Made by a program: the position numbers and the translations under genes. The notes under the pieces are model-generated. The model saw nothing but the letters and a program-made list of their open reading frames with translations, ran no database searches and was not told the DNA's origin. Positions 1 to 14,082 of a DNA stretch of 32,000 nucleotides are shown here, piece by piece. Within the stretch, counting starts at the first letter, position 1; each line of letters starts with the position of its first letter. Source of the stretch: an archaeon (GTDB taxonomy: Archaea; Iainarchaeota; Iainarchaeia; Iainarchaeales; CSSED10-239); contig JBBABY010000005.1 of the NCBI GenBank assembly GCA_041657425.1, positions 30,001 to 62,000 of the forward strand, given 5' to 3'.

Positions 1-920
1 AAACAAATATAGTGATATTCTGAATTTTTCAGTAATTTCTTTCCAACGACAAGAGTTCCTTTTTCTTTTTTTTGAGTTGTAATTTTACCAACTCTGTAAT
101 TAAGTGTCTGTAATAATAATCTTAATCTTAAGATTAATTCTTTACTTGCAGACACATATCTACAACTATCTTTTTTCTTTTTATGAATATACCCGTCAGA
201 TAACAACAACCCTTCAATAAATGCTTCTTTTTGCTCATCTGGAATCGTATAAACCCAAGAAGGAATTATTTTATTCTTTGCACCTTTGTTAAATCCAAGG
301 GATTCAATAAATTTAGTTATGTTAACTGAATTCATATAGATGTAAGTTTTATCAGTAGTAATTGTCTTAAATCCAAATACTTTTTTACAAGTAGTTATAC
401 ATTTTTCTCTACCCTCTGTTCCTTCAGGTAAGGCAAAACCTATTTCTCCTTTATCTCTAATCCAACCATCTCCAAGATAAAGTCCTAAGAATAACATTAA
501 ATCTGTTGTTGATTTTTCTGGTATTTTTACATCATTAATTACATTTACTTTATAATCGCCTTTCTTTGAAAGTTGTATTTTTTCAAAAGTAAACGGTTTA
601 TTTCCTTTTAATTTCTTTAATGTAATTATTTGATCTCCTTTTTTTAATTCTTCAAGTGTTTTCCAAATTAAAGTGTTTGGTTTTCCTCTTGGAAGTTTAT
701 TAACAACTAAGAATGGGTGATTTCCTGTTGCTTTGATGTTATGATGAAAAGTTTCAATTTCATAAACTTTCTTAACTCCATTATCAAACACACCACTGCA
801 TTTTTTCAGAACCAATTTGTGTGTTTTTTGATCAAATGCATAAACCATTTCTCCAACTTTAATTTCAGTTATTTTTTTAAGTCCGGTTTCTGTGTAAATT
901 AATGAGTCTTTACTTAAGCA
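1..920 (-). mobile_element. Intein (Hint domain plus LAGLIDADG homing endonuclease) inserted in PorB; partial, C-terminal splice junction off-window
   Basis: Right after ...NEGYMN the sequence reads CLSKDSLIYTETGLKKITEIKVGEMVYAFD (block A, Cys1 codon 920..918). It continues with IKATGNHPFLV (block B TxxH) and two LAGLIDADG motifs, LGLYLGDGWI and AFIEGLLLSDGYI. The canonical PorB continuation (T/S-G-x-Q) is missing, so the C-extein must lie beyond position 1. Confidence 0.85.
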
Positions 921-1343
921 ATTCATGTACCCTTCATTCGAATAACAAAGATAAACAAAATCATGTCCTCTTTCTAGTGCTCCAGATAAACTTTGAAGAC
1001 CAATATCAAAACTTCCACCATCTCCAGCAATTACTAAAAAATTAATGTCTTTTTTTATTTTTCCTTTTTTCTTTTGTGCTCTGTATGCACTTTCAACTCC
1101 AGAAATTGTTGCGGCAGAGTTTGCAAAAAGAGAATGTATCCAAGGAATATTCCATGCAGTCTGTGGATAAACTGTTGTTGTAACTTCTGCACAAGAAGTT
1201 GCGCTGCTTGCAACAACTGGTTTGTCGCTTGCCGCAATCACAGTCTTACAAATAATTGCAATGGGGCACCCTGCACAAGTTCTGTATCCTGGAACCATTG
1301 CTTTACTTTCAGCTAATTTAATAGCAAGTTCTTTTGAGTTCAT
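1..1343 (-). CDS. porB: Pyruvate/2-oxoacid:ferredoxin oxidoreductase beta subunit (PorB), 5' part; interrupted by an intein; ORF runs off the left window edge
   Basis: Hand translation from ATG 1343..1341 gives MNSKELAIKLAESKAMVPGYRTCAGCPIAI...NFLVIAGDGGSFDIGLQSLSGALERGHDFVYLCYSNEGYMN. This is the PorB TPP-binding GDG-x26-N..YMN region. The frame stays open to position 1. It is absent from the supplied ORF track because no stop lies in the window. It sits at the end of the porD-porA gene string. Confidence 0.9.
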   Translation of the reverse strand, partial: MNSKELAIKLAESKAMVPGYRTCAGCPIAIICKTVIAASDKPVVASSATSCAEVTTTVYPQTAWNIPWIHSLFANSAATISGVESAYRAQKKKGKIKKDINFLVIAGDGGSFDIGLQSLSGALERGHDFVYLCYSNEGYMNCLSKDSLIYTETGLKKITEIKVGEMVYAFDQKTHKLVLKKCSGVFDNGVKKVYEIETFHHNIKATGNHPFLVVNKLPRGKPNTLIWKTLEELKKGDQIITLKKLKGNKPFTFEKIQLSKKGDYKVNVINDVKIPEKSTTDLMLFLGLYLGDGWIRDKGEIGFALPEGTEGREKCITTCKKVFGFKTITTDKTYIYMNSVNITKFIESLGFNKGAKNKIIPSWVYTIPDEQKEAFIEGLLLSDGYIHKKKKDSCRYVSASKELILRLRLLLQTLNYRVGKITTQKKEKGTLVVGKKLLKNSEYHYIC

Positions 1344-1346
1344 GTT

Positions 1347-2507
1347 TTATTCCTTTTCTTTTTCAAATCTGTGTTTTTTATAATTATCAACCATCGCTAA
1401 AATTAAATCTCTAAATGCTGGATTTTTTATAACATCGTTATTATTAGGATATGCAGATTCTTTCTGTCTGCCTTTAGAGGGGTTAAATAAAATTGCATCA
1501 ATTTTATTTTCCCCGTCTAATTTTAATGTGCTAGGTAATTGCTTTGTTCCATCACGCATGCTCCAATCATAACCTATAAGTTTTGAATTTATGTTACTAT
1601 CAGATAATACTCGACGAATCGGATATTGCATATATGTCCAATCATCGGATCTTGCAGCTGAAGAATATCCAACAAATGATGCTGGCATTTTCTTACTATC
1701 ACTAGCATCTACAAATATAAAAACTGGATCTTTATATTCTTGTTTATAATTATTGATAAATTTCATAAACGTATTAACAATTATTCTTGTTTTTGTTCCA
1801 TCTCCAACTTCTCCATATCTTCGATCAGGATTACTTGAAGGATATTTAAATTTATCTACAATTACTTTTTTACCATCTGGTTTAATTGACCAAGTATAAG
1901 GCACACCAGTACTTGCAATACCTACCACAACTATTGGTCTTTTTGTAAGTTTTGAAATTCTATTTACAAAAAATTCAGTAATTAAAATCTCTTTTCTAAA
2001 GGAGTTCATAAATTCAAAATCAGAAAAGTGCAATTTATATTTGTAAAACACTTCTTCTATTTCTTTTTCTAGTTCGTAACCATCTTTAATTTTTCCTGCT
2101 CTCACTTTTTCAAATAAAATATTAAGATCTTTTAGTATTGGAGAATTCACTTGATTAATAGAATTTATATTTAAGTCTGAAATCTGGGATAATATTTCAT
2201 TAAAATATACTTTCTCTCTTAATAATTGTTCTATTCCTAACTTTTCTAAACTTGTAAATACTTTGTTTTCCATATCGCTATACTTGGACGACTGCCAATA
2301 GTACCGGCTATTTAATATACGTCTAACTTCTTCTCTAAGGCGATGTATGCCAATTTTGTTATTCCTTATTTTTTCAAACAATTCGTTTAAATCCTTTAAT
2401 ATTGGACGCCCTTTTAGTTCTGCAGGATTTATTTTTGAATGTGTAATAGATAGTAATAATTCATTAAATTTGTGAGGCCCATCAGGTTTACGATTTAATT
2501 TAGGCAT
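1347..2507 (-). CDS. Hypothetical protein (386 aa, Cys-free) located between porA and porB
   Basis: Long ORF, same strand, 21 nt downstream of the porA stop; its own stop is 3 nt before the porB ATG. It has an internal duplication (RPILKDLNELFEKIRNNKIG / SPILKDLNILFEKVRAGKIKDG). The C-terminal globular part has hydrophobic strands VVVGIASTG and VFIFVDASDS. No family recognised. Confidence 0.6.
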   Translation of the reverse strand: MPKLNRKPDGPHKFNELLLSITHSKINPAELKGRPILKDLNELFEKIRNNKIGIHRLREEVRRILNSRYYWQSSKYSDMENKVFTSLEKLGIEQLLREKVYFNEILSQISDLNINSINQVNSPILKDLNILFEKVRAGKIKDGYELEKEIEEVFYKYKLHFSDFEFMNSFRKEILITEFFVNRISKLTKRPIVVVGIASTGVPYTWSIKPDGKKVIVDKFKYPSSNPDRRYGEVGDGTKTRIIVNTFMKFINNYKQEYKDPVFIFVDASDSKKMPASFVGYSSAARSDDWTYMQYPIRRVLSDSNINSKLIGYDWSMRDGTKQLPSTLKLDGENKIDAILFNPSKGRQKESAYPNNNDVIKNPAFRDLILAMVDNYKKHRFEKEKE

Positions 2508-2528
2508 AAAATTTTCACTTTAATTATT

Positions 2529-3689
2529 TTATTCCTTAATTCCAATATATCTGCTTTTTAGTTTCTTTCCTGCAATTACAGAAACTAAAAGTTCTTCAAT
2601 ATCTTTTTGATAAATGTCTCTTCCACCAAGTCCAAAGACTAAGGACATTACTTCTGGTTTATTTGTTGTATTCATTACTGTTAAACAAATATCTTTGTAA
2701 AGAGGAGGATAACTTCCTGGCCCTTCAGTTCTTTCAAGAACAATTATTTTTTTTGCTTTCTTTAAAGCTTTTGAATATTCTTCATAAAGGAATGGTCTGA
2801 ATAATATTGGTCGCAAAAGACCAACAGATTTTCCTTCTTTTCTTAATTTATCAATAACATCTTTTGAGCTTTCTGCTGTTGAACTTAATACAATAAGAAC
2901 TGTTTCTGAAGAACTTGCAAAATAATCTTCATAAAAATTAATTTCTTTTCCAAAATTATTTTTAAATTCTTTAGAAATTTTTGAATAGTTGTCTTTAACT
3001 TCCAAAAAAGCATCAAACATTTGTTTTCTTATTTCCATGTAACTGTCAGGTAAAGCAAGAGCACCAATAGTTATTGGGTGATCAGTGTCAAGAAGATTAT
3101 ATTTAGGTTTAAATTCTCCTACAAATTTTTTAACAGTTAAATCATCATAAACATTAATAACTTCCATATTGTGGCTTGTGTAAAATCCATCAATACAAAC
3201 CATGATCGGAAGAGATACTGATTCTGCAAGTTTTAATCCAAATAATGTCATCTCATAAGCTTCCTCGGCATTCTCACAATACACTTGCATCCAACCTTGG
3301 TCAATAGCAGACATTGAGTCACTGTGATCACAATGAATGTTAATCGGCGCAGAGATTGCTCTATTAGCCACAGGCATAACTATTGGAAGTCTTAAACCAC
3401 TAGCGACACTAAGTGCTTCATACATGTAAAGTAAACCTTGAGAAGCAGTAGCTGTAACTGCTCTAACACCTGCAGCACTTGCACCAATGGTTGCTGAAAG
3501 AGCAGAGTGTTCAGATTCTGTTCTAATTAATTCAGTGTCAACAAGCCCATTAGCAGAATACTTAGCATAACTTTCAATGATTGGTGTTTGAGGAGTAATT
3601 GGATACATTGCAAATACTTCTGGGTTAATTTGCTTTAATGCATAAGCAATTGCTTCTCCACCACTTAAACCTAATTTTGTTGTTTTCAT
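2529..3689 (-). CDS. porA: Pyruvate:ferredoxin oxidoreductase alpha subunit (PorA)
   Basis: MKTTKLGLSGGEAIAYALKQINPEVFAMYPITPQTPIIE...SEHSALSATIGASAAGVRAVTATASQGLLYMYE is typical of the PorA N-terminal domain. The ATG at 3689 is preferred: it forms an ATGA overlap with the porD stop and has GGTGAAGG upstream. The track ORF extends to 3710. Confidence 0.9.
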   Translation of the reverse strand: MKTTKLGLSGGEAIAYALKQINPEVFAMYPITPQTPIIESYAKYSANGLVDTELIRTESEHSALSATIGASAAGVRAVTATASQGLLYMYEALSVASGLRLPIVMPVANRAISAPINIHCDHSDSMSAIDQGWMQVYCENAEEAYEMTLFGLKLAESVSLPIMVCIDGFYTSHNMEVINVYDDLTVKKFVGEFKPKYNLLDTDHPITIGALALPDSYMEIRKQMFDAFLEVKDNYSKISKEFKNNFGKEINFYEDYFASSSETVLIVLSSTAESSKDVIDKLRKEGKSVGLLRPILFRPFLYEEYSKALKKAKKIIVLERTEGPGSYPPLYKDICLTVMNTTNKPEVMSLVFGLGGRDIYQKDIEELLVSVIAGKKLKSRYIGIKE

Positions 3690-3964
3690 TCCTTCACCAT
3701 CTTTATACATTTAACTGGACAGATTTCAGCACAGATTCCACAGCCTTTACAATAATCCATATTTGTTTCTCCTCTTTTAATGCCAGTTTTATCTTTTTTG
3801 GTTAAGATACAATGTTCAGGGCAAGCATTAAAGCAAAGCATACAGTGTATGCATTTTTTTGAGTCCCACACTGGCTTAACACTTCTCCAAGATCCAGTTT
3901 TGTTAACAAGGGCAGTTCCTCCAGGAAGCACCCCACCAAGATTGTGTTTTTGTTTTTCTGTCAT
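3686..3964 (-). CDS. porD: Pyruvate:ferredoxin oxidoreductase delta subunit (PorD), 2x[4Fe-4S] ferredoxin-like
   Basis: Two CxxCxxCxxxCP motifs (CIHCMLCFNACP, CKGCGICAEICP), size about 90 aa, immediately upstream of porA. ATG at 3964 preferred over GTG at 3973. Confidence 0.9.
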   Translation of the reverse strand: MTEKQKHNLGGVLPGGTALVNKTGSWRSVKPVWDSKKCIHCMLCFNACPEHCILTKKDKTGIKRGETNMDYCKGCGICAEICPVKCIKMVKE

Positions 3965-4053
3965 AAATATCACTTATACCTAAATACTATATAGTATATA
4001 AAATACAAGTCTTTTTATAATTATTTAATTTAAAATATATAAGTGATTTAATA

Positions 4054-4881
4054 ATGCCAGAACTAAGAACCTATAAACGAGGAAAAACAGAAGTTGTTGT
4101 TAATGGGCATAAGCATGAATTACTAGATAAAAAAATATTTGAAGAAATTAAAAGACAAGCAAATTTTGTGAGATTACCAAATTCAACAGGCCAGTTTTCT
4201 CAAATTTTAGAAAAAGAGATCTTTATTAAAAAGGCAATTGATCCAGAAACAGACATAGATCAAATGAAGGATTACTTAAAACAATCACAAGTAGTAGATA
4301 ATATTCCAGAGATTTATGGTTATATTAAACTAAATGATAAGTTATATATTATTCAAAAACTAATTTTAGACTCGATGGTATTAAGTGATTATTTAAAAAA
4401 AGCAGATAAAAAAGAAATATTAAGAATAAAAGAGCAACTAAGAAAACAAGGAGAAATACTTTTACAAAATAACCTTTTACCTTGGGATTTTAAAATAAAG
4501 AATTTAATTTATTCTAAGAAAGATAATAAAGTTTATATTTGTGACAATGAGATATCCCACATACACCCCGAACTATTATATTCTTTAATTAAAAGAGCAA
4601 ATTTACAACCCTCTAGAAAATTAAAATTATTAAGAGATTTGTCAAAAATAAAAAGAAAAGTTGTTTTAATAAAACAAAAATTGCTTAATTTAAATAAAAA
4701 AACAAGCAATGCAGAAACTGTATTGCAATCTAATAAAGAAATGAAATCTTCTAAATTAAAAAGATTAATTCATTCAGAAACTAAAAAGATATATTCTAAT
4801 TTATCAAGTCAAGAAATTAAAAAAATACAACAAATTACTTTTGAAGAGTTTTTGGCAGATCTTGATTCTTATTTAAAATAA
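4054..4881 (+). CDS. Hypothetical protein, possibly an atypical protein-kinase-like fold; Lys-rich C-terminal tail
   Basis: 275-aa ORF. The segment LLPWDFKIKNLIYSKKDNKVYICDNE resembles a kinase catalytic loop (D-x-K-x-x-N) followed by a degenerate DFG (CDN). Judged by eye only. Its 3' end overlaps the porG 3' end by 13 nt (convergent). Confidence 0.4.
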   Translation: MPELRTYKRGKTEVVVNGHKHELLDKKIFEEIKRQANFVRLPNSTGQFSQILEKEIFIKKAIDPETDIDQMKDYLKQSQVVDNIPEIYGYIKLNDKLYIIQKLILDSMVLSDYLKKADKKEILRIKEQLRKQGEILLQNNLLPWDFKIKNLIYSKKDNKVYICDNEISHIHPELLYSLIKRANLQPSRKLKLLRDLSKIKRKVVLIKQKLLNLNKKTSNAETVLQSNKEMKSSKLKRLIHSETKKIYSNLSSQEIKKIQQITFEEFLADLDSYLK

Positions 4882-5426
4882 TCAAATCCTTTTTTAAGAC
4901 ATAAAAGATTTGGTTGAATAATATCTTTCTTTCCTTTCTTTTCAAATTCTGTAGTTATTGATGTTTCAACTGAAGAATATTTGATAACTCCAAATAATTT
5001 AACAAAGGCACCAATAAGAACTGCATTTGGATTATTTAATTTTAATAATTCCATAGAAATTGAACTTCCATCAATTACGTTTGTTTTTTCTTCTTCTTTT
5101 ATGTATTTTTTAAAGTCTGCTTTCTTTTTATTTGTATTAATTATATAATCACAAGTAAACTTTGAAAGATCAGGGATTGCTGTAAACAAAGTATCGTCAA
5201 TAACAATAACTAAATCTGGATTAGTTATTGGTTCATGCACTCTTATTTGTTTGTCAGAAAGTCTAACAAATGATCTTACTGGCGCTCCTCTTCTTTCAGG
5301 GCCATACTCAGGAAATGCTTGAACCACTTTTCCATCGATTAGCCCAGAATCTGCAATCAATTGTGCACAGGTTTTGGCACCAAGTCCTGCTCTACCATAA
5401 ATTATTATTTCAAAGTTTGTTTTCAT
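4869..5426 (-). CDS. porG: Pyruvate:ferredoxin oxidoreductase gamma subunit (PorG)
   Basis: MKTNFEIIIYGRAGLGAKTCAQLIADSGLIDGKVVQAFPEYGPERRGAPVRSFVRLSD matches the conserved PorG N-terminus (GxGGQG-like loop, YGPE.RG.P). Confidence 0.9.
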   Translation of the reverse strand: MKTNFEIIIYGRAGLGAKTCAQLIADSGLIDGKVVQAFPEYGPERRGAPVRSFVRLSDKQIRVHEPITNPDLVIVIDDTLFTAIPDLSKFTCDYIINTNKKKADFKKYIKEEEKTNVIDGSSISMELLKLNNPNAVLIGAFVKLFGVIKYSSVETSITTEFEKKGKKDIIQPNLLCLKKGFDYFK

Positions 5427-5438
5427 ATTTTCTCAAAT

Positions 5439-5741
5439 TTATTTTTTAGTTGCAATTCTGGTTATCCAAAAGAAGGTTTCATAATTCTGGTCTTTATCAA
5501 TTAATTCTGAAATAGTTAAATCTCCACAATTTTCAAAAAATTCTTTTAATCTGGGTTCTTTAGCAACACATCCATAAAACATCTTTACTTTTAAATGTCC
5601 AATCTTAGTTTTTATTAAGTCAGGTCTAGTATTTACATTAAAAAATTTTTTTAATTTCTCAGGAGTTGAACGAAAGGTAAAGTTATTTATTCTTTCTTTT
5701 ATTTTTGTTCTAATTTCTCTAATTTTTGCTTTCATTGCCAT
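5439..5741 (-). CDS. Hypothetical protein (100 aa), upstream of and co-oriented with porG
   Basis: ORF only, with a 12-nt gap to the porG start. No recognisable motifs. Confidence 0.45.
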   Translation of the reverse strand: MAMKAKIREIRTKIKERINNFTFRSTPEKLKKFFNVNTRPDLIKTKIGHLKVKMFYGCVAKEPRLKEFFENCGDLTISELIDKDQNYETFFWITRIATKK

Positions 5742-5839
5742 TTATAATCACCATAACTATCAATACATAAGAAAGAAATGATTATATATATATTTATAGT
5801 ATTTATAATATATCTATTTACAAACAAACGTGATAATTC

Positions 5840-7186
5840 TTGAAAACACTAGAAAAATACTTTAAACCACATACAATTGCAATAATTGGGGCCTCTGATA
5901 AGCAGGCAAGTATAGGTAATACCCTCGCTAAGAACGTAAGCAACTATAAAAGAAAAGTATTTTTTGTAAATCCTAGATTGTCAGGAAAGAAAATATTAAA
6001 TAAACAAGTTTTTGCAAGTATTCTAGAAATCAAAGAAACAATAGATTTAGCAGTTATTGCAGTTCCTGCAGTTGCTGTGATTTCTGTTATTGAAGAAATT
6101 GCAAAAACTAAATGTAAGAACATATTAATGGTGACTTCTGGTTTTTCAGAGATTGGAAGAATCGACATTACTGAGAATATAAAAAAATTAATAACAAAAC
6201 ACAAAATAAATCTAGTGGGTCCAAATTGTTTAGGTTTATTAAATCTAGAAAATAATTTAGATATTACATTTAATGACAGAAATAAATATGATTTGCCAAA
6301 AGTAGGAAGAACATCAATAATTTCTCAGTCAGGCGCTCTTGGTCTTGCACTTTTAGATCTCTCAAGTAAAGAGCAATTAGAAATTAATAAGTTTATTTCA
6401 TATGGTAATGCATTAGATGTTGATGAAAGTGATTTATTAGAGTATTTTTATACTGACAAAAGCACAGACCTAATTCTTTGTTACATTGAAGGAGTGCAAA
6501 ACGGGAAGAAGTTCTTTGAAACATTAAAGAAGGTTACAAAGAAAAAGAAAGTTATAATTTTAAAAGGCGGAATCTCAGAGAAAGGAACAACAGCAGTTAA
6601 GAGTCACACCGCAGCAATTGCCGGTTCTTCAAAAGTTTTTTCTACAGCAGTTAAGCAAGCAGGAGCAAAAGAAGTAGATAATATTAGAGATTTATTTAAT
6701 CTTGCAAAGTTTTATTCTTGGTACAAAACAAATAAGATGGAAAATATTCAGATAATAACTAATGGTGGGGGGTTTGGCGTAATTACAACAGACCAATTAG
6801 ATTTACAAAAAATAAAGTTGGCAGAAACTACAAAAGAAACAAAAGAAAAAATAAAAAAGATTGTTCCAATCTATGCGACAACCACAAACCCAATTGATTT
6901 AACAGGGGATGCCGATAATGCCAGATTCTGTAAAGTTATTGATATTTGTTTAAAAGACAAAAATGTTTCAGCAATTGCAGTATTAATGCTTTTGCAACTA
7001 CCGAGTATTTCTTCTTCAATTGTTAATGAGATTGCAAGCAGAAAATCAAAAACACACAAATCAATATTTTTAGTATCAGTTGGTGGAAGTAAAACCGATA
7101 AGCAATTAGCAGATTTTGAAAAACAAAAAGTACTATGTTTTAAAGACCCAAAAGATCTTTCAAGGATTTTAAAACAAATTATTTAA
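5840..7186 (+). CDS. Acetate--CoA ligase (ADP-forming) alpha-type subunit / CoA-binding succinyl-CoA-synthetase-like protein
   Basis: HTIAIIGASDKQASIGN (CoA-binding Rossmann), AVIAVPA, GPNCLGL, SQSGALG and TAAIAGS motifs are typical of ACD alpha. TTG start with a GTGA SD-like element 6 nt upstream; no in-frame ATG nearby. Confidence 0.8.
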   Translation: MKTLEKYFKPHTIAIIGASDKQASIGNTLAKNVSNYKRKVFFVNPRLSGKKILNKQVFASILEIKETIDLAVIAVPAVAVISVIEEIAKTKCKNILMVTSGFSEIGRIDITENIKKLITKHKINLVGPNCLGLLNLENNLDITFNDRNKYDLPKVGRTSIISQSGALGLALLDLSSKEQLEINKFISYGNALDVDESDLLEYFYTDKSTDLILCYIEGVQNGKKFFETLKKVTKKKKVIILKGGISEKGTTAVKSHTAAIAGSSKVFSTAVKQAGAKEVDNIRDLFNLAKFYSWYKTNKMENIQIITNGGGFGVITTDQLDLQKIKLAETTKETKEKIKKIVPIYATTTNPIDLTGDADNARFCKVIDICLKDKNVSAIAVLMLLQLPSISSSIVNEIASRKSKTHKSIFLVSVGGSKTDKQLADFEKQKVLCFKDPKDLSRILKQII

Positions 7187-7431
7187 ATTGCTTTTACTTT
7201 TCTTTTTGGACTTTCAGCTTTATCTTTGTGTTTTAATAGTTGGTTAATTTCCAGAAGCAGTTCTTTTTTCTTTAGTCCATACATTTCACAGACATCGCCA
7301 ATTTCTAAATTGTCAATTTCTATTTTTGCCATTGGACAACTTACGCAAGGGACTTTGTGTTTAACTAGTACTTTTTCCATTCCCTTAAGTTTCATTATCT
7401 TTTCTAATTTTGTATGTTCGTCTACTTTCAT
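7183..7431 (-). CDS. Small DUF1858-like (hybrid-cluster-protein-associated redox disulfide type) protein
   Basis: 82 aa with VPCVSCPMAKIEIDNLEIGDVCEMYGL, which resembles the DUF1858 CxxC.../G motif pattern. Last gene of the isc string. Its stop overlaps the ACD stop in a shared TTAA (convergent). Confidence 0.45.
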   Translation of the reverse strand: MKVDEHTKLEKIMKLKGMEKVLVKHKVPCVSCPMAKIEIDNLEIGDVCEMYGLKKKELLLEINQLLKHKDKAESPKRKVKAI

Positions 7432-7445
7432 ATTTTGCCTCCGAT

Positions 7446-9041
7446 TTATTTTTTACAATTTTTTTCTTTATGACAACAGGAGCAGTTATCATTATGTGTT
7501 ATTTCTAATATTTTTCTTCCTTGTTTGGAATAATAATCATTAATTGCTGCTTGAAGTGCATCTGCTGCTAAGTTAGAACAGTGCATTTTAATTGGTGGCA
7601 AGCCGTCAAGAGATTTTGCAACATCTCCTCTAGTTATTTTAAAAGCATCATCTAGAGTTTTACCTTTAGCAAGTTCAGTAACCATAGATGAGGTTGCAAT
7701 TGCTGCTGCACAGCCAAGTGTCTTAAACTTAATATCTTGAATAATTTCTTTTCCGTCTTTGTTTTTTGAAACAGTAATGTATAACCACATTATATCTCCA
7801 CAATTATGAACAGTAAAAGCATTTGTGTTGTAAGAATGCGAAGTATCTATTTCTAAATTATACACTTTGCCGGAATAGTTTTCTGTTTTTTTAAAAGTAA
7901 TGGGGGTATATAAAATGTTTTTATCTATCCAAGAGTTTATTGCTTCTGGTCTTAGATTATAAAAAGTAACTTCAATAATTTTAGCAAGTTTTGTTGTAGA
8001 TTCTTTATCGCCCACGTGTATTCTATAACATTCTTGATGTTTTTGCTCTTTTTTATCTGTTTTTTCTTTTTCTGTATATATTGATGGAATAATTCCTTGT
8101 CTTAATAATAATATTTTAAGTTTATGGACTAATTCCTTAGATATAGTAGAATATCCCCCCCTTGGTATTTTTGTATTAAAGAAACCATCCCCTTTCCAAA
8201 TACCATAAATTAAAGATTTTTGTTTTTCTGGAGGCAATGTCATAAACATATCTGGTATATCTTTATTTTTAGCACCAGATTTAAATAACTCTTTAAATAA
8301 TTTAACTATAAAAACGCTATTTATATAAACTACTTGAGAATGTTGAGTTTCATTTTTTTTAATAATTGGGGTTATTCCAAAAATTTTTTCTGAAATTCTA
8401 ACCACGTCTTGTGCAAGATTATTTTCTTTTAAATTAAAACAAAATGCTATATGCACATTATTTGTTTTATCAAAATAATATCCTTCTGAAAGATAATATC
8501 CTGCTAATCTTAAAAAATCTGAATCTAATTTTATTTTTGAAGGTATTGATTTACTATTGTGATCAAATTTCTTTTTTTTGGTATTTACTTCTAAGTAATC
8601 AACATCTTTTGTATCAGATAGTATTGCATATAAAATTAAGTCGCCTTTATCTAGTTGTTCTGCGTGATACCAGGCCGGAATTAATGTTTTTTTATTTTTC
8701 GTTCTTAAAAATTTATCTCCTTTAGGGATTTTTATTGCATAAACAAGATGTTCTTTAGTTAATTTTATTTCTCCTAGTCTGTTTTTTAGAACAATAATTG
8801 GTTCAGAAATAACTCTTTTGTAAGTTTCAGTAACTGAATGATACTTCCCATCATGACTTATAATAAAATCATTTTTTTTTATATCTTTAATTTTTTTTAG
8901 TTTTAAATTAGTGTGTATATTTGTATCTTTAAACAAGCATTTAGGATTTCCTACCTTTCCAACTCCGTCAGCATTTTCAATCTCTCCAAGGTTTTGTGGT
9001 TTTAAGAAATTTTCCATAACTTTTTTTGAATAGTTTTCCAT
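7446..9041 (-). CDS. iscU: Fe-S cluster assembly scaffold IscU/NifU-like, interrupted by an intein (exteins 34 + 118 aa)
   Basis: N-extein MENYSKKVMENFLKPQNLGEIENADGVGKVGNPK. C-extein CGDIMWLYITV...KFKTLGCAAAIATSSMVTELAKGKTL...LPPIKMHCSNLAADALQAAINDY. Together these contain all three IscU Cys ligand motifs, plus a C-terminal Cys/Lys-rich tail NCSCCHKEKNCKK. Confidence 0.9.
   Translation of the reverse strand: MENYSKKVMENFLKPQNLGEIENADGVGKVGNPKCLFKDTNIHTNLKLKKIKDIKKNDFIISHDGKYHSVTETYKRVISEPIIVLKNRLGEIKLTKEHLVYAIKIPKGDKFLRTKNKKTLIPAWYHAEQLDKGDLILYAILSDTKDVDYLEVNTKKKKFDHNSKSIPSKIKLDSDFLRLAGYYLSEGYYFDKTNNVHIAFCFNLKENNLAQDVVRISEKIFGITPIIKKNETQHSQVVYINSVFIVKLFKELFKSGAKNKDIPDMFMTLPPEKQKSLIYGIWKGDGFFNTKIPRGGYSTISKELVHKLKILLLRQGIIPSIYTEKEKTDKKEQKHQECYRIHVGDKESTTKLAKIIEVTFYNLRPEAINSWIDKNILYTPITFKKTENYSGKVYNLEIDTSHSYNTNAFTVHNCGDIMWLYITVSKNKDGKEIIQDIKFKTLGCAAAIATSSMVTELAKGKTLDDAFKITRGDVAKSLDGLPPIKMHCSNLAADALQAAINDYYSKQGRKILEITHNDNCSCCHKEKNCKK
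7803..8939 (-). mobile_element. Complete 379-aa intein with LAGLIDADG homing-endonuclease domain inside IscU
   Basis: Starts CLFKDTNIHT (Cys1 codon 8939..8937). Block B is LTKEHLVY. LAGLIDADG motifs are LAGYYLSEGYY and LIYGIWKGDGFF. Block F is VYNLEIDTSHSY and block G is AFTVHN, followed by the +1 Cys (codon 7802..7800) of the CGD motif. Confidence 0.9.
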
Positions 9042-9052
9042 AATCTTTTCAC

Positions 9053-10195
9053 CTAATATTTATAAGGACACATTTCTCTTAATTTTTTAATTGTGTCTTT
9101 AACAGTGTCAACAGTATATTTAATTTCTTCTTTAGTATTATCAATTCCTACAGAGAATCTAACAGTTCCATGAGTTTGTTCTTGTTTTAATCCTATTGCT
9201 CTTAAAACATGACTTGGTTCAAGAGTATTAGATGAACAAGCAGAACCAGTTGAAACTGAAATTCCTGCAGCATCAAGATACAAAAGTATTGCTTCTCCTT
9301 CTGCATACATGAAACTCAAATTAGCATTATTACATAGCCTTTTATCTTTTGAACCATTCAACCAAGACTCTTCAACATCTGATAATCCTTTAATCAATTG
9401 ATTTCTAAGATTAGTCATATGTTCAATTTCTTTTTCTCCAATGATGTCGGTTGCTTTAGAAAAACCAATTATTCCAGGAACATTAACAGTTCCGCTTCTT
9501 AAATTATATTCGTGTCCTCCACCATGAAGAAGCGGTTCTAATTTTATTCCTTCTTTAATAAATAATCCTCCAACACCTTTAGGTCCATAAATCTTATGAG
9601 CATTAATTGTTAAAAGATCAATATTGTCTTTCTCAAGGTTAATTGGAGCTTTTGTAAAACTTTGACAAGCATCTGAATGGAAAAGAGTTTCTTTTTCATG
9701 GCAAATTTTTCCAATCTCTCTTAAGTCTTGAATAGTTCCAATCTCGTTATTTCCATGAATTACAGAAACTACAAGTGTGTCTTTTTTAATTGCCTTTTCA
9801 AGTTGGGAAAGATTAACAAAACCTTCTTTATCAACATCAAGATATGTTACAGAATATCCTTTTCTTTCAAGAAACTTATAAACATTAAGAATACTATCGT
9901 GTTCAATCTTTGTTGTAATAATGTGTTTCTTATTTTTGTTATTTTCTGCTAGCCCCTTAATTGCAAAATTATTACTTTCTGTTCCTCCAGAAGTAAAGAT
10001 TAGTTTGTGATTTTTGCTATTGGCCTTCTTTGAAATGTGCTCTCTTGCTTTATCTAGTTCTGCTTTAGCTTCGCGACCAATTGTGTGAAGACTAGAGGAA
10101 TTTCCGAAGTATTTTTCTTCTGCGTCAGTTATTGCTTTCATAACAGATGAATGCATCTTTGTTGTTGCTGCATTATCTAAATAAATTGATTTCAT
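9053..10195 (-). CDS. iscS: Cysteine desulfurase (IscS/NifS class)
   Basis: YLDNAATT, SGGTESNN, the PLP-lysine motif INAHKIYGPKGVGGL, the active-site loop STGSACSS and RFSVG are all canonical. Confidence 0.92.
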   Translation of the reverse strand: MKSIYLDNAATTKMHSSVMKAITDAEEKYFGNSSSLHTIGREAKAELDKAREHISKKANSKNHKLIFTSGGTESNNFAIKGLAENNKNKKHIITTKIEHDSILNVYKFLERKGYSVTYLDVDKEGFVNLSQLEKAIKKDTLVVSVIHGNNEIGTIQDLREIGKICHEKETLFHSDACQSFTKAPINLEKDNIDLLTINAHKIYGPKGVGGLFIKEGIKLEPLLHGGGHEYNLRSGTVNVPGIIGFSKATDIIGEKEIEHMTNLRNQLIKGLSDVEESWLNGSKDKRLCNNANLSFMYAEGEAILLYLDAAGISVSTGSACSSNTLEPSHVLRAIGLKQEQTHGTVRFSVGIDNTKEEIKYTVDTVKDTIKKLREMCPYKY

Positions 10196-10500
10196 TTCTT
10201 TTCCTCTTTTTTACAGCATTTATTTTTACAAAAATCTTTTGTGTGTTGATTAACGATCTTAACAAGTGGTTTAATTGTTTTCTTGTTTAAGGAATAAATA
10301 ATGTTCTTTCCTTGTCTTTTAGAAAAAACAATATTGCAATTAAGAAGTTGTTTTAAACTATGGCTAACCTTTGATTGTTCTTCTCCAGTAATTGTACTTA
10401 TTTCAGAAACTGTTTTTTCAGACTTATAAAGTAGCTTAATTATTTTCCATCTCGTCTTGTTGGAAATAACTCCAAAGAAATTATATGATAAACATTTCAT
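10192..10500 (-). CDS. ArsR/SmtB-family winged-HTH transcriptional regulator with Cys-rich C-terminus
   Basis: ISNKTRWKIIKLLYKSEKTVSEISTITGEEQSKVSHSLKQLLNCNIVFSKRQGKNIIYSLN is a typical ArsR HTH. The tail is DFCKNKCCKKEEKK. A 4-nt overlap with the iscS start implies an operon. Confidence 0.8.
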   Translation of the reverse strand: MKCLSYNFFGVISNKTRWKIIKLLYKSEKTVSEISTITGEEQSKVSHSLKQLLNCNIVFSKRQGKNIIYSLNKKTIKPLVKIVNQHTKDFCKNKCCKKEEKK

Positions 10501-10540
10501 ATGTATATTATGTCAGAAGTAGTATATATATATTTTGTTT

Positions 10541-11722
10541 TTAATATTTTAGAATATCTTTAGCTTTTTCAACATCTCCGTTATTTAGAAGATCATAGAT
10601 TCTCTTATAATCAAAGTCTTTGGAGATTTTAGTTTGCTCAATTTGCTCAGAGAAGATTTCTTTTGCAAGTTCTTGTATGTTTTTATTTTCGGTTTGTAAT
10701 TTCTTAAGTTGATCAATGCTTTCTTTTAGTCTTTTTTCTTCAATATCGTTCTTGATTGAAATATAAAAATAATCAGAATATTCTTTTTTAATCTCATTTA
10801 AATTTAGATTCTTAAGAGATTCTCCGCTTTCAAGTTCCCCTTTAATTCTAATTCTTACAATTGCTTTTTTTTCAGGAGTCTTTGTAAGTTTTTCAAGTTC
10901 AGTTTTGATTTGTTGCAAGATTTCAAAAACGGTTTTTTTAGAAAACTTAATATCTATATAATGTGTTTGTCTAATGTTTTTTATTTCAAAGAAGTTTGTT
11001 TCTTTAGTTTCAGTATCAATAATAAAATAACCTTTTGGTTTTTCAGTTTCTTTTTTTTTAATCTGTGTTGTTACTGTGGAACCAGGAAGTAAGAACTTAA
11101 CTCCTGAAGGAAGATCAATAACGCTTGACCAATGAAGATGGCCATTAACAATAACATCAAATCCACTTGGAAGGTCACTTAAGGAAATTGTGGCGATCAT
11201 CTCGTCTTCAAAAGGCAGATATTCCAAAATTGACTGATGTATCATTAAAAGGTTGTATTCTCCCTTTACTGGTTGTGGAGAAAACTTTTCAAGAAGATAG
11301 TCCTTAGCATATTTTTCTGGAACTCCAGTCATTCCAAAGATATTTATTTTTTCATTTATAAACGAAAATTTGTCTGCTTTTAAAAGTTTAAGAAAACCCA
11401 TAGATTCTAAAAGTTCAACAGTAGTGATATAGTCTTTTCCACGATATTCGTGGTTACCAATAATTGCAATCATTGGTATTTTTGTTTTTAATTCTTCTAA
11501 TTTATTTGGAATATTAATGTCGCTTAAAAGATTAATTGTTTCAAACAAAACTTCTGGAGAGGGAATAGAAATATCAAAGAGGTCTCCAGGAACCAATACT
11601 AGATTAATATTTTGTTCTTCAAGTTGCTTGAAGGCAGTATAAAGATTATTAAAAGAGTCTTTTCCAAGTTCAGTGTCATAGCTAACTCCAAGGTGCCAAT
11701 CGCTAATAATTGCAATTTTCAT
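10541..11722 (-). CDS. mre11: Mre11-type DNA double-strand-break repair nuclease (calcineurin-like phosphoesterase)
   Basis: Motifs ISDWHLG, PGDLFD, IGNHE, MIHQ and NGHLH appear in the canonical order. ATG at 11722 (MKIAII) preferred over 11737. Confidence 0.8.
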   Translation of the reverse strand: MKIAIISDWHLGVSYDTELGKDSFNNLYTAFKQLEEQNINLVLVPGDLFDISIPSPEVLFETINLLSDINIPNKLEELKTKIPMIAIIGNHEYRGKDYITTVELLESMGFLKLLKADKFSFINEKINIFGMTGVPEKYAKDYLLEKFSPQPVKGEYNLLMIHQSILEYLPFEDEMIATISLSDLPSGFDVIVNGHLHWSSVIDLPSGVKFLLPGSTVTTQIKKKETEKPKGYFIIDTETKETNFFEIKNIRQTHYIDIKFSKKTVFEILQQIKTELEKLTKTPEKKAIVRIRIKGELESGESLKNLNLNEIKKEYSDYFYISIKNDIEEKRLKESIDQLKKLQTENKNIQELAKEIFSEQIEQTKISKDFDYKRIYDLLNNGDVEKAKDILKY

Positions 11723-11800
11723 AAATAAGATATACACATAACTTTTTTTAATACCTTTTAAAAATATATTTATTCATAAATATATATCTAGTTTTCTAGT

Positions 11801-11871
11801 GCCTTGGTAGCAAAACGGTCATGCGTTCGCCTGCAGAGCGAAATAACGGAGTTCGACTCTCTGCCAAGGCT
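11801..11871 (+). tRNA. tRNA-Cys (anticodon GCA)
   Basis: Hand fold: acceptor GCCTTGG/CCAAGGC, anticodon stem TTCGC/GCGAA with loop CTGCAGA, T-arm CGGAG-TTCGACT-CTCTG, discriminator T. No encoded CCA. Confidence 0.88.
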
Positions 11872-11875
11872 TAAT

Positions 11876-12289
11876 TTACATATTCTTTAAGATCTCTGCA
11901 ATGTATTTTTGTGCATCGTTTAATTCAGATATTTCTCTTGTTAATTTTGCAGAGTATTTTTTTGCTCCAAGTTCTTGAAATTCGTGAATGTCAAAGTCTT
12001 CAACTGTAGAAAATAAAACTTTTGGATCTGTCCCATTAATAATCTCATTTAATAATTTAGTTGTATTTTTTTGTTTTCTATAAAAAAAAGAATTAGAAAA
12101 TGCAAGTCTTTTTTTCTTTGCATCTTTTGTTTTGGTTAAAGAAAGAAATGTGTTAATGTGTTTTTTGTGAGAGTTAGTTGTGGTTGTATCTAATACCAGT
12201 TTTGGTTTTTTTAAATGATTTGGAAGGCCAACCTTTACTTGCTTTTTTGCAAGTTTTGCTTTTCCCATTTTTTTAAAATCACCAAACAC
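11876..12289 (-). CDS. Hypothetical basic protein (137 aa; GTG start at 12289 or ATG at 12268)
   Basis: ORF only. Its start overlaps or abuts the stop of the upstream PEP-synthase-like gene, suggesting co-transcription. No motif recognised. Confidence 0.45.
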   Translation of the reverse strand: MFGDFKKMGKAKLAKKQVKVGLPNHLKKPKLVLDTTTTNSHKKHINTFLSLTKTKDAKKKRLAFSNSFFYRKQKNTTKLLNEIINGTDPKVLFSTVEDFDIHEFQELGAKKYSAKLTREISELNDAQKYIAEILKNM

Positions 12290-14082
12290 TACATATCTTT
12301 TACTTCTTTTAAGATCTTTTTAATTTTCTCTTTAGCAATCATACAAACTGAACCAGGATATTCTGCTCTTAATCTTGAAATTTCAGAAGCAGTAAATATT
12401 TGTTCAATTGGTATAACTATTTGCTTAACCTTATCAACATCTATGTGATTTAGATCTTTAATATTTAAAGTTCCTTTTGCATCAACATATGTTTTTACGT
12501 TTTGATTAGCCGTTGGTTTTTCTTCAATTTCTTCTTCTCTTGGCTTATTAAAGATTATATGTTCTGGAGCAGTGTTTGTTTTTTTAATTTCTTTTTTATT
12601 AATTATAACAGCACCTTTTTCTCTAAGTTCTCTTTGTTCTTGCCATAATTGTTTTGTTCTTTGTTGTCTTTCATCCAAAAAATCATCTTCTTCTGGATGT
12701 ATATCAACAATATCAAGAGAAGCAATAGAATGAACTTCACCAGTCTGTCCGTTTATTTGAACTTTATCTCCATCAAGTAATTGTTCTGTTCCAAATCTAG
12801 TTCCAACAATACATGGTTTATCAAGATCTTTAGTTATTACTGCTGCATGACATAATGAACTCCCAGCATTAGTAATTACTCCTCTAGCAATTCTCATTGC
12901 TCCAACCATGTCTTGATCAGTCATTGCAGTAACAATAATTGATTCTGAATTAACTTTTTCAAGATCATTGTAATTCATAATGTTAACAACAATTCCATTA
13001 ACTGTTCCGTTAGTTACTCCAACACCTTTAATTAATAATTCACTTTTAAAAGTATTAATTTTTTGTTGTCCACACTTTTTTGTTTTCTCTGCAGTATTTG
13101 GATTAACTGCTTCTGAGCCGATAATATAAACATCAGCTTTATCAATAGCCCATTCAATTATCTGCGGTGTTCCAAAATATTCTTCTAGTTTTACTGCAGT
13201 GTTAGTTAAATCTTTAAGAACGTGAGTATTAATTTTAGGTTTTTCTCTTTCGGATTCTTGAACTGCTTCTTTAGCCGTTGCACCTTTCATTCTTTTAAGT
13301 TCCCAGTCTTGTCTTGAAACTGTTTTACCAAGAGTCAAGTATGGTTTCTTTTGTGTTTCGTAATGATCAGGAGTAATTTCTTTAATAACATGAGCTGCTC
13401 CAAAACCATAGACTGCTTCAATAACAACAGTGTTTGGGTCAGTTGCACTTTTACTTGAAATTATTATTCCTGAAGACTTTGCATTAATCATATTTTGAAT
13501 AATTATTCCAATTCCGAGTCTTTCAATATTAATTTCTTTCTTGTGAGCATATTCTAAAACATCAGGACTATAAAGAACACCCCATGTTTCTTTAACTGCT
13601 TTAATCATTTCTGGCTTTCCTTTAATGTTTAAAGATCCGCCTTCTTCTTCAATAAATTTAGTATCACAAACTTCTCCGTCGTCACAAACAACAGAACATC
13701 TTATTGCAATATAAGCATCAGCACTGCTTGGAAGCCAACCACCAGTTGCATCTCCAAGTTTGCCATAATATTTATATAATTCAATTTCTGTTTCTTGATT
13801 TAATTTTCCTTTAACAATTAATTGTTTGATTTCGCTTGATTTAGTTTCAATATCTTCTCTATCACTATAATTTATACTTCTTAAAATTTCAACAATCTTT
13901 GGTTTTAAATTATTCATTTGTACAAAATTGAAAAATTCAGTAGCAGTAACAACAAAACCTCTAGGAACCGTTATCCCTGTGATTGCAAGTTGAGCAAGTC
14001 TAGCTGCTTTTCTCCCAATTGTTCTAGAATCAGTTGAACCAAGTTCTTTAAGCCATCGTATGTTTTCGTAATCCATTCCCAT
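12289..14082 (-). CDS. PEP synthase / pyruvate phosphate dikinase-family protein: ATP-grasp N-domain plus phosphohistidine swivel domain, lacking the C-terminal PEP/pyruvate-binding domain
   Basis: The N-terminus IGRKAARLAQLAITGITVPRGFVVT resembles the PPDK_N motif GGKxxxLxxL...vP.GF. The swivel motif GVITNAGSSLCHAAVITKDLDKPCIVG (His412) compares with [21 protein letters not shown] of E. coli PpsA. Only about 150 non-homologous residues follow. Confidence 0.8.
   Translation of the reverse strand: MGMDYENIRWLKELGSTDSRTIGRKAARLAQLAITGITVPRGFVVTATEFFNFVQMNNLKPKIVEILRSINYSDREDIETKSSEIKQLIVKGKLNQETEIELYKYYGKLGDATGGWLPSSADAYIAIRCSVVCDDGEVCDTKFIEEEGGSLNIKGKPEMIKAVKETWGVLYSPDVLEYAHKKEINIERLGIGIIIQNMINAKSSGIIISSKSATDPNTVVIEAVYGFGAAHVIKEITPDHYETQKKPYLTLGKTVSRQDWELKRMKGATAKEAVQESEREKPKINTHVLKDLTNTAVKLEEYFGTPQIIEWAIDKADVYIIGSEAVNPNTAEKTKKCGQQKINTFKSELLIKGVGVTNGTVNGIVVNIMNYNDLEKVNSESIIVTAMTDQDMVGAMRIARGVITNAGSSLCHAAVITKDLDKPCIVGTRFGTEQLLDGDKVQINGQTGEVHSIASLDIVDIHPEEDDFLDERQQRTKQLWQEQRELREKGAVIINKKEIKKTNTAPEHIIFNKPREEEIEEKPTANQNVKTYVDAKGTLNIKDLNHIDVDKVKQIVIPIEQIFTASEISRLRAEYPGSVCMIAKEKIKKILKEVKDM

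Follow-up and report, generated by a model that had tools for sequence, protein, structure and literature searches.

A class-1 LAGLIDADG intein in the active-site loop of the PorB subunit of a predicted archaeal pyruvate:ferredoxin oxidoreductase

In a low-GC DPANN-type archaeon that possesses a four-subunit pyruvate (2-oxoacid):ferredoxin oxidoreductase (PFOR), an intein interrupts porB, which encodes the beta subunit of the enzyme. Under the reading that we favor, with a probability of roughly 0.88, porB holds a canonical 370-aa class-1 intein, which consists of a HINT domain with a nested LAGLIDADG endonuclease, is inserted in frame, splices out to produce PorB, and has spread by homing. 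In these reduced-genome archaea, the supply of acetyl-CoA, and through it of ATP, runs by way of pyruvate:ferredoxin oxidoreductase. The features of the locus, which lies at the left end of the analyzed window (32,000 nucleotides of contig JBBABY010000005.1), are listed in Table 1.

On the minus strand, the frame that starts at position 1343 stays open for 447 codons, with zero stops, up to the window edge, as against 32 and 50 stops in the two alternative frames over positions 1-1343. This frame encodes PorB residues 1-141 (921-1343) followed by 306 in-frame residues of a class-1 LAGLIDADG intein (1-920); the intein is truncated at the window edge, with 306 of its 370 residues inside. The original prediction had described this passage from PorB into an intein that remains open to the edge, and all the motif strings that it quoted are indeed present. 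Two parts fall outside the window, on its left: the final 64 residues of the intein and the C-extein of 171 aa. They are taken from a database protein (P0397, 682 aa, NCBI MFA5745897.1, on record in both NCBI and JGI/IMG) that is identical to the window ORF over the shared part (447/447 residues) and whose junction came from the member list of the P0001 protein cluster. P0397 is assigned to the window's contig by length: its contig measures 92,632 bp, as does the one recorded for the unique neighboring ORF of the window. In this protein, the intein is 370 aa long and ends in ...VVHN/TGNQRSS (here and below, the slash marks the junction), followed by the full 171-aa C-extein. Around the junction, the sequence reads ...EHNFIADGVVVHN/TGNQRSSATP..., without a stop or frameshift and with the C-terminal part of PorB complete. 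The original prediction had anticipated an HN followed by T/S/C-G-x-Q, which is what VVHN/TGNQ provides; because P0397 ends its intein in this manner and continues into a complete C-extein, the signs of disruption named beforehand (a stop or frameshift, a missing C-extein or a missing HN junction) are not found. At the DNA level, window bases 3-58 and 12-53 have no exact match in genome_contigs or metagenome_contigs, and a look-up with P0397 itself gave no contig; those with a neighboring 386-aa ORF and with PorA gave nothing beyond L005, an ENA record of this contig that ends at window position 136 and is 99.99% identical to the window in nucleotide sequence over positions 136-12507.

The host protein is recognizable on both sides of the insertion. 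The window ORF matches Pfam TPP_enzyme_C (35.9 bits, cut-off 21.9) and the NCBIfam PorB family NF008819, in the latter case covering only the N-extein half of the profile (positions 7-135 of 300), under the cut-off, with the match ending exactly at the junction. When the intein is removed, the resulting 312-aa product aligns without gaps across the junction to the PFOR beta subunit of Methanosarcina acetivorans (9bt4_C, 2.6e-78), its closest solved relative, and to an OOR beta subunit (5c4i_C, 1.7e-61). NF008819 is the best family for the spliced product, 60 bits ahead of VorB, with 335.6 bits over profile positions 7-296 of 300; since this score is under the equivalog cut-off of 405 bits, specificity for pyruvate is our best guess. 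Four cysteines are assigned, by alignment only, as ligands of the proximal [4Fe-4S] cluster, in the motifs RTCAGCP and ATSC of the N-extein and FAACPTN of the C-extein (from P0397), so that the insertion leaves the fourth cysteine on the other side from the first three and from the GDG...N motif. PorB is encoded together with porG/C, porD and porA in an operon that is interrupted by two extra ORFs. One of these, the 386-aa ORF between porA and porB, has only five homologs among those found and no match in Pfam, NCBIfam or PHROG, and its medium-quality AlphaFold model (pLDDT 71.8) has no significant match in the PDB (best E = 0.19).

The intein sits between window bases 920 and 921, that is, between Asn141 and the Thr of the conserved Y-M-N/T-G-x-Q loop of the TPP/substrate pocket. 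Asn141 corresponds to Asn996 of Desulfovibrio africanus PFOR (gapless alignment to 1b0p, chain index 995), a residue that lines the substrate pocket, whereas TPP and Mg are bound by the GDG motif and an Asn (PMC5020499). The original prediction was thus right in placing the insertion at YMNTG.Q, but this is not the end of the GDG-x26-N motif, which falls at N136; the junction lies five residues further on, after N141. Loss of activity in the unspliced enzyme, as put forward in the original prediction, is a reasonable expectation. The empty counterpart of the site is available from another sample: an intein-free allele (L008) aligns to window positions 2209..921 at 92% nucleotide identity, with the alignment ending exactly at the junction, and reads GAAGGGTACATGAAT/ACTGGTAATCAACGT around the insertion point (rendered at another length, ...AATGAAGGGTACATGAAT/ACTGGTAATCAACGTTCA...).

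Table 1. Features of the porB locus and of the interrupting intein (window coordinates; aa, residues of the window ORF)
Feature	Coordinates	Strand	Evidence or remark
PorB N-extein, aa 1-141	921..1343	-	NF008819 over aa 9-143 (E = 6.7e-48); alignment with 9bt4_C, PFOR beta of M. acetivorans
Cluster Cys motif RTCAGCP	1263-1283	-	Proximal [4Fe-4S] site, N-extein
Cluster Cys motif ATSCAE	1185-1202	-	Proximal [4Fe-4S] site, N-extein
GDGG, start of TPP/Mg2+ motif, aa 107-110	1014..1025	-	Role of GDG and Asn from PMC5020499; Mg-binding Asn is N136
YSNEGYMN, aa 134-141, final eight N-extein residues	921..944	-	-1 residue is N141
Intein residues 1-306: N-terminal HINT half and most of the LAGLIDADG endonuclease domain	1..920	-	Translation, profiles, predicted structure
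CLSKDSL, intein start, aa 142-148	900-920	-	Translation
Intein Cys1 codon (ORF Cys142), block A nucleophile of the first acyl shift	918..920	-	Cys in 173/173 family members
Block B ATGNHPFLV, aa 205-213; T-x-x-H is intein T65 and H68	705..731	-	T65 and H68 in 173/173
First LAGLIDADG motif LGLYLGDGW, aa 286-294; predicted catalytic Asp is intein D151	462..488	-	Asp in 169/173
GAKNKIIPSW, conserved Lys-rich segment of the endonuclease (intein K215, K217); role presumed from other LAGLIDADG inteins	255..284	-	K217 in 173/173; K215 Lys in 147/173
Second LAGLIDADG motif IEGLLLSDGY, aa 376-385; predicted catalytic Asp is intein D242	189..218	-	Asp in 171/173
porA, alpha subunit	2529..3710	-	Pfam POR_N 9.6e-72, PFOR_II; NCBIfam PorA_Arch 2e-129
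porD, delta (2x[4Fe-4S]) subunit	3686..3973	-	NCBIfam PorD_Arch 1.9e-27; TIGR02179 90.8 bits, over cut-off
porG/porC, gamma subunit	4869..5426	-	Pfam POR 2.3e-27; TIGR02175 157.7 bits, over cut-off

The sequence and fold features of a class-1 intein are in place, namely Cys1, the block B TxxH, the C-terminal HN (in P0397), Thr+1, an in-frame removable insertion, and the HINT fold. Both halves of the element exceed curated cut-offs in the profile searches proposed originally: Pfam Intein_splicing scores 38.6 bits (cut-off 35.8), TIGR01445 (intein_Nterm) 33 bits over aa 142-213 (cut-off 24.5), and Pfam LAGLIDADG_3 34.8 bits over aa 370-427, the region of the second motif (cut-off 22.5). Among 173 distinct family members, C1, T65, H68, D352, H369 and N370 of the intein are invariant, and so is Cys41, a non-catalytic residue of the splicing domain; Cys306 is retained in 163. 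For the P0001 intein, which is 92% identical to that in the window, an AlphaFold model built from alignment A1 (pLDDT 87.9, pTM 0.86) finds as its best PDB matches the TliVMA and PhoVMA inteins (E = 2.4e-22, TM 0.73), PI-PkoII and PI-SceI; Foldseek places this model, with a probability of 1.00, among the VMA, PI-SceI, DnaB, GyrA and RecA inteins and the hedgehog Hint domains.

The PorB intein is widespread. It occurs at this one PorB site in DPANN, Asgard and other archaea and in several bacterial phyla, altogether in at least 239 species-representative genomes, and in 77 of 80 genome loci drawn from these 239, the frame runs from Y-x-N/C to HN/T-G-x-Q without stops. More than 170 distinct intact homologs have these same junctions, and the automatic label that IMG attaches to such proteins is "beta subunit/intein/homing endonuclease". 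Intein presence is polymorphic at short evolutionary distances: the closest known relative of the window gene is intein-free (P0121/L008, 94.8% identical to the spliced product), and the spliced form of the intein-bearing P0001 is more distant (91.6%). Degenerate-endonuclease (P0256) and mini-intein (P0260) derivatives occupy the same PorB site and, judged by their sequences, complete the picture of the homing cycle beside the intact and empty alleles.

The intein is under purifying selection, with dN/dS of 0.09-0.15 for the entire intein and 0.11-0.19 for its endonuclease part, similar to the 0.10-0.18 of the extein. The divergences of the intein and its host are incongruent. In 87% of 14,878 pairs, the intein is conserved more than the host protein, and for pairs of bacteria-labeled and archaea-labeled genomes, where the labels are MAG taxonomy and thus open to binning errors, this fraction rises to 97% (in one example, 79% vs 47% identity). 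Such an excess of conservation over the host indicates horizontal spread by homing, even if strong constraint, as opposed to recent transfer, could account for some of it. A search of viral contigs turned up no close copy of the intein; the best matches there are 20-36% identical and none is in PorB, so that a viral carrier was dropped as a candidate.

The proposed sequence of events follows that of class-1 inteins. Translation would yield a 682-aa precursor in which intein Cys1 would form a thioester, to be attacked by Thr+1 of the extein; the terminal Asn370 would then cyclize with the help of His369, and an O-N shift would release the 312-aa PorB, free to assemble with PorA, PorD and PorG, along with a 43-kDa intein. 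With Thr at +1 in place of the stronger nucleophile Cys, splicing could turn out to be slow or to depend on conditions. The released intein is most likely a site-specific endonuclease that would cut intein-free porB at the coding sequence of the insertion site, and repair of the cut allele would copy the intein in. Homing of this kind would account for the spread of the intein over archaeal and bacterial lineages.

A second intein is present in the same window, in NifU/IscU, 6 kb from the PorB intein. It directly precedes a cluster-ligand Cys, with the first Fe-S ligand Cys as its +1 residue. The two window inteins are only 29% identical, which rules them out as near-identical repeats that break contigs.

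The main alternative, which we consider doubtful, is that the intein still splices whereas homing has been lost, the element being a vertically inherited passenger that is kept only since its imprecise loss would destroy an essential active-site loop. Comparison of the window with its close relative L001 fits such co-inheritance within a clade, with similar dS for intein (0.58) and extein (0.49); degenerate and mini-intein forms are known elsewhere, and the search of viral contigs produced no carrier. A mere passenger, however, is hard to reconcile with the retention of the two LAGLIDADG aspartates in about 97-99% of the 173 members, with the low dN/dS of the endonuclease domain (0.11-0.19), or with an intein-free nearest relative of the window gene. 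Furthermore, vertical descent cannot be the source of the excess of intein conservation seen in 97% of the cross-domain pairs.

Co-option of the intein as a post-translational redox switch, in which oxidation, for example a disulfide on Cys1, holds splicing until reducing conditions return, is rather improbable. The conservation of Cys41 (173/173) and Cys306 (163/173) and the identity of the host as an O2-labile Fe-S/TPP enzyme are compatible with such a role, as are the related inteins in SufB and the NifU/IscU intein described above, and redox-controlled splicing is documented elsewhere, for example for the Mycobacterium tuberculosis SufB intein and in redox traps (cited in PMC7765530). Nevertheless, near-identical hosts are polymorphic for intein presence, which implies that the intein is dispensable, and selfish homing fully accounts for the observed pattern. 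Even less probable, in our estimate, is an extended version in which the PorB and NifU/IscU inteins jointly act, beyond being selfish elements, as a redox- or oxygen-sensing maturation switch. Here, an oxidized Cys1, possibly disulfide-bound to the invariant Cys41, would block splicing, and assembly of both the oxygen-labile PFOR and the Fe-S scaffold protein would wait for reducing conditions; the benefit, if real, would help explain the strong conservation and wide spread of the element in anaerobic, small-genome lineages.

Finally, a disrupted pseudogene or assembly chimera that makes no functional PorB is largely refuted and very improbable: the window does stop within the intein, and the end of the independent ENA assembly at position 136, along with two Logan contigs that contain only the neighboring 386-aa ORF, shows that assemblies fragment around the porB locus, but the frame is free of stops with all catalytic residues intact, dN/dS is about 0.1, the full-length 682-aa P0397 is on record in two databases, the ENA copy is virtually identical to the window over positions 136-12507, and more than 170 distinct intact homologs have the same junctions.

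With the spliced and mobile PorB intein that we favor, the known hosts of inteins, mostly replication and repair proteins, would come to include an enzyme at the center of anaerobic energy metabolism. Inteins of archaeal metabolic enzymes are cataloged in InBase, for instance in the PEP synthase, GF6P aminotransferase and UDP-glucose dehydrogenase of Methanocaldococcus jannaschii, where they reside at conserved active-site motifs; to our knowledge, no 2-oxoacid:ferredoxin oxidoreductase is among these hosts. According to a census of prokaryotic inteins, 62-67% of the hosts are replication and repair proteins (PMC4760082), and by this standard PorB is an unusual host, as originally claimed; the element itself is not rare, given that no fewer than 239 species-representative genomes carry it at this position. 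In the literature searched, including the main text of that census and the review PMC7765530, no mention of an intein in PorB/PFOR was found, so within these sources PorB appears to be undescribed as an intein host, the element being common in uncultured microbes. With one family at one PorB site, which can be intact, degenerate, reduced to a mini-intein or empty, and with an intein more conserved than its host, this system makes a clean natural dataset for studying, in uncultured anaerobes, how inteins cross between domains and how the homing cycle proceeds. For MAG annotation and metabolic reconstruction, it means that a protein of about 680 aa labeled "TPP-dependent enzyme" or "hypothetical protein" would be a normal PorB once spliced. 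Protein and genome engineering could also gain from the PorB intein, both a new intein with Thr at +1 and a new specificity of the LAGLIDADG type.

Among the known systems, the closest in architecture are the TliVMA and PhoVMA inteins (PDB 7qsu/7qss/7qst) and PI-SceI (Sce VMA1, 1vde/1lws), which share with the PorB intein a HINT domain split by a two-motif LAGLIDADG endonuclease, as well as Cys1, the block B TxxH and the terminal HN, and which are likewise inserted in a cofactor/substrate loop of an enzyme of energy metabolism. The best structural match, 7qsu (E = 2.4e-22, TM 0.73), is also matched in sequence over residues 15-365. However, sequence identity to this group is only 14-21%, the host of the PorB intein is a TPP/Fe-S oxidoreductase rather than an ATPase, and its +1 residue is Thr, not Cys.

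By sequence, the closest solved splicing domains are those of the DnaB mini-inteins (Npu, 4o1r, E = 2.6e-10; Ssp, 1mi8, E = 8.7e-10), in which both halves match, including ...EHNFIA-x-x-I-VVHN. The solved DnaB constructs, of 142 and 158 residues, differ in being without an endonuclease domain, and their host is a replicative helicase. Redox-sensitive splicing has its precedent in the SufB inteins, such as that of M. tuberculosis (cited in PMC7765530), whose host likewise belongs to Fe-S metabolism, although the protein and the insertion site are different; the metagenomic SufB inteins (P0250, P0261) are about 32% identical to the PorB intein.

Translation of window positions 1-1343 on the minus strand yields a single open frame of 447 codons that exits the left edge, and the other two frames contain 32 and 50 stops; in DNA of ~29% G+C, an open frame of this length is far from chance. 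The intein part matches three profiles above their curated cut-offs, namely Pfam Intein_splicing (38.6 bits), TIGR01445 (intein N-terminal region; 33 bits) and LAGLIDADG_3 (34.8 bits). Translation and profile searches thus confirm the original prediction of a PorB frame that begins at 1343, switches to a LAGLIDADG intein and remains open to the window edge, and all the sequence strings quoted in it were found where they had been placed. The evidence supports the interpretation of this ORF as an intein in PorB, with a minor correction of its position. The features are summarized in the table.

Features of the porB region and of the rest of the window
Feature	Window positions	Strand	Remarks
PorB N-extein, residues 1-141	921-1343	-	PorB equivalog model, first 135 positions, E = 6.7e-48; match ends at junction
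Intein start, residue 142 onward	920 downward	-	three models above curated cut-offs
386-aa ORF between porA and porB	1347-2507	-	no Pfam, NCBIfam or PHROG match
275-aa ORF between porG and porD	4054-4881	+	no Pfam family; weak PHROG 'kinase' match, E = 0.0013
porG	4869-5426	-	
NifU/IscU with second LAGLIDADG intein, 531 aa	7446-9041	-	intein ~7803-8939, 379 aa
RadA	14270-15289	+	without intein in the window
[FeFe]-hydrogenase large-subunit C-terminal domain protein, 293 aa	15918-16799	-	Fe_hyd_lg_C, 3.7e-39

Exact-match DNA searches returned no contig reaching further left of the window, and the ENA copy of the contig (L005) stops earlier still, within the intein at window position 136. The C-terminal junction was recovered at the protein level, in P0397, a 682-aa database protein (NCBI MFA5745897.1 and MFA7708845.1) that clusters with the best homologue, P0001, at 90% identity and is labelled 'pyruvate/2-oxoacid:ferredoxin oxidoreductase beta subunit/intein/homing endonuclease' in IMG. 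The longest contig listed for P0397 measures 92,632 bp, a length also given for the contig of the nearly unique 386-aa ORF of the window. P0397 is identical to the window ORF across all 447 residues and continues beyond the window edge as ...EHNFIADGVVVHN/TGNQRSSATP..., followed by the complete C-terminal part, so that the intein comprises residues 142-511 (370 aa), the C-extein 171 aa and the spliced product 312 aa. The expected HN followed by T-G-x-Q and the rest of PorB is accordingly in place, and P0397 contains neither of the features named beforehand as speaking against an intein, a stop or frameshift or a missing HN/nucleophile junction.

The spliced sequence aligns without gaps through the junction to the solved beta subunits of Methanosarcina acetivorans PFOR (9bt4_C, E = 2.6e-78; ...vdneaymn-tgiqrs...) and oxalate oxidoreductase (5c4i_C, E = 1.7e-61), and its match to the PorB model runs from end to end with 335.6 bits, the top score among all families although under the 405-bit equivalog cut-off. 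Aligned with no gaps to D. africanus PFOR, the spliced sequence places its -1 Asn at chain index 995 (...EVYSN/TGGQ), corresponding to Asn996, which lines the substrate pocket and rotates on pyruvate binding (PMC5020499); the Mg-binding Asn of the S. tokodaii enzyme lies five residues earlier (Asn118b vs Leu123b; PMC5020499). The insertion had been assigned to the end of the GDG-x-N Mg site, a placement that is therefore five residues off, but it does fall in the heart of the TPP/substrate pocket. Because the N-extein carries three putative cluster cysteines and the GDG...N motif, the C-extein carries the fourth cysteine, and the site is within the pocket, the unspliced precursor is, judging from its sequence, very unlikely to be active.

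The PorB intein bears LAGLIDADG motifs, has Thr at +1 and is a textbook example of class 1. Across 173 distinct aligned family members, numbered with ORF Cys142 as intein residue 1, the invariant residues include Cys1, Thr65 and His68 (block B), Asp352 and His359 (block F region), His369 and Asn370 (block G), as well as Lys217, and the two LAGLIDADG aspartates are conserved in 169 and 171 members. Two non-catalytic cysteines are as well conserved as the catalytic residues: Cys41 (window 798-800), present in 173 of 173 members, and Cys306 (window 3-5), present in 163. The AlphaFold model of the P0001 intein (92% identical to that of the window), for which ten diverse members were used, has high confidence (pLDDT 87.9, pTM 0.86), and the PDB structures that match it best are VMA inteins from Thermococcus and Pyrococcus that carry a homing endonuclease (7qsu, E = 2.4e-22, TM 0.73), followed by PI-PkoII and PI-SceI. 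The splicing half is matched by mini-inteins and hedgehog Hint domains; by sequence, DnaB mini-inteins are nearest to the splicing domain.

We infer the following route for splicing and homing. Once translated, the 682-aa precursor would undergo an N-S acyl shift at Cys1, transesterification by Thr+1 and cyclisation of Asn370 with His369 assisting; an O-N shift would then produce PorB with the native ...YMN-TGNQ... loop, ready to assemble with PorA, PorD and PorG. The released intein is predicted to cleave intein-free porB alleles within the conserved coding stretch that surrounds the insertion point; repair would then copy the intein in.

PorB-plus-intein proteins of ~675 aa form at least 120 clusters in a protein search, and a scan in which each GTDB species was represented by a single genome detected relatives of the intein in at least 239 genomes; the Y-x-N/C...HN/T-G-x-Q junctions and an open intein frame are found in 77 of the 80 loci kept. 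As labelled, the archaeal hosts include Iainarchaeota (including the complete genome of Ca. Forterrea multitransposorum), Woese-, Nano-, Aenigmat- and Micrarchaeota, Heimdallarchaeota and Bathyarchaeia, and the bacterial hosts include Omnitrophota, Aerophobetes, Planctomycetia, Clostridia, Parcubacteria and Cloacimonadota. No close copy was detected in the viral contigs searched. A close relative is an empty allele, P0121 (308 aa, locus L008), which is 94.8% identical to the spliced product, vs 91.6% for spliced, intein-bearing P0001, and the DNA of which aligns to the window up to base 921, exactly the insertion point. Against three relatives, dN/dS is 0.09-0.15 for the intein and 0.11-0.19 for its endonuclease part, as low as for the extein (0.10-0.18). 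Intein identity exceeds host identity in 87% of 14,878 pairs (mean 63% vs 55%), levelling off near 60% while extein identity drops to 32-50%; where one genome of a pair is labelled bacterial and the other archaeal, the intein is the better conserved part in 97%, with one pair at 79% vs 47%. By sequence, intact members of the family at this site occur alongside degenerate and mini forms: both catalytic aspartates are gone from P0256, and P0260 carries a ~150-aa mini-intein at the YMN/TG site. Some PorB-like metagenome proteins retrieved with the intein as query (P0260 and P0253) contain two inteins, the second an unrelated LAGLIDADG intein inside the GDG motif (...GGDGA/CYSND...LNGN/SYDIG...), so that PorB has at least two insertion sites. 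Taken together, distribution, empty alleles, selection, divergence and decay forms are what a homing cycle accompanied by repeated horizontal transfer is expected to leave behind.

The por operon is ordered porG, 275-aa ORF (on the opposite strand), porD, porA, 386-aa ORF, porB; in relatives, porG-D-A-B are contiguous and followed by acetate kinase. The 275-aa ORF, which overlaps the porG end by 13 bases, is not in the por operons of two relatives (L001 and L002), and in L001 porD and porA are separated by another extra gene, for an HD-domain protein. In this clade, the por operon appears to gather insertions. A search of 5.8 billion proteins gives just five homologues of the 386-aa ORF. At least one of them, P0245, is also directly upstream of porB, as is a further copy in L008, and P0244 lies among pyrimidine-biosynthesis genes, between those for a phosphoribosyltransferase and OMP decarboxylase. 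The N-terminal part of the 386-aa protein is internally duplicated (aa ~14-52 and ~115-153), its alpha/beta core is conserved (RPIVVVG..TG.PYT, YPSS, PLFVFVDSS, ILFNPSK), and no PDB entry significantly matches its AlphaFold model (pLDDT 71.8). Independent assemblies fragment at window positions 1-136 and 1314-2603 (L005 and the Logan contigs L006 and L007, of 1,241 and 1,278 bp, which contain just the 386-aa ORF), suggesting population heterogeneity, with coexisting presence/absence alleles of intein and ORF.

The intein-bearing NifU/IscU lies six kb from the PorB intein, with junctions ...VGNPK/CLFKD...FTVHN/CGDIMW; at the latter, the conserved CGD Fe-S-ligand motif supplies its first Cys as the +1 nucleophile. 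Identity between the PorB and NifU inteins is 29%; among close relatives, NifU contains an intein in L001 and is intein-free (212 aa) in L002 and L003. The PorB and NifU inteins might act as redox-sensitive maturation switches, as hinted at by the invariant Cys41 and the Fe-S context, but we regard this as quite improbable; a redox trap of Cys41/Cys306 with Cys1 is possible. Elsewhere, the window contains ordinary housekeeping genes of archaea, among them those for RadA (a frequent intein host elsewhere), exosome, proteasome and ArgRS.

The kind of element is fully known, and PorB appears to be undescribed as its host: literature searches on inteins with PorB, ferredoxin oxidoreductase, thiamine pyrophosphate, DPANN or Forterrea found no relevant paper. 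In a prokaryotic intein census, 62-67% of hosts function in replication/repair and 8-22% in nucleotide metabolism, and the main text mentions neither pyruvate nor ferredoxin (PMC4760082). Since the automated annotation of IMG already flags PorB-intein proteins as intein-containing, the PorB intein, although unreported, comes as no surprise within its known class.
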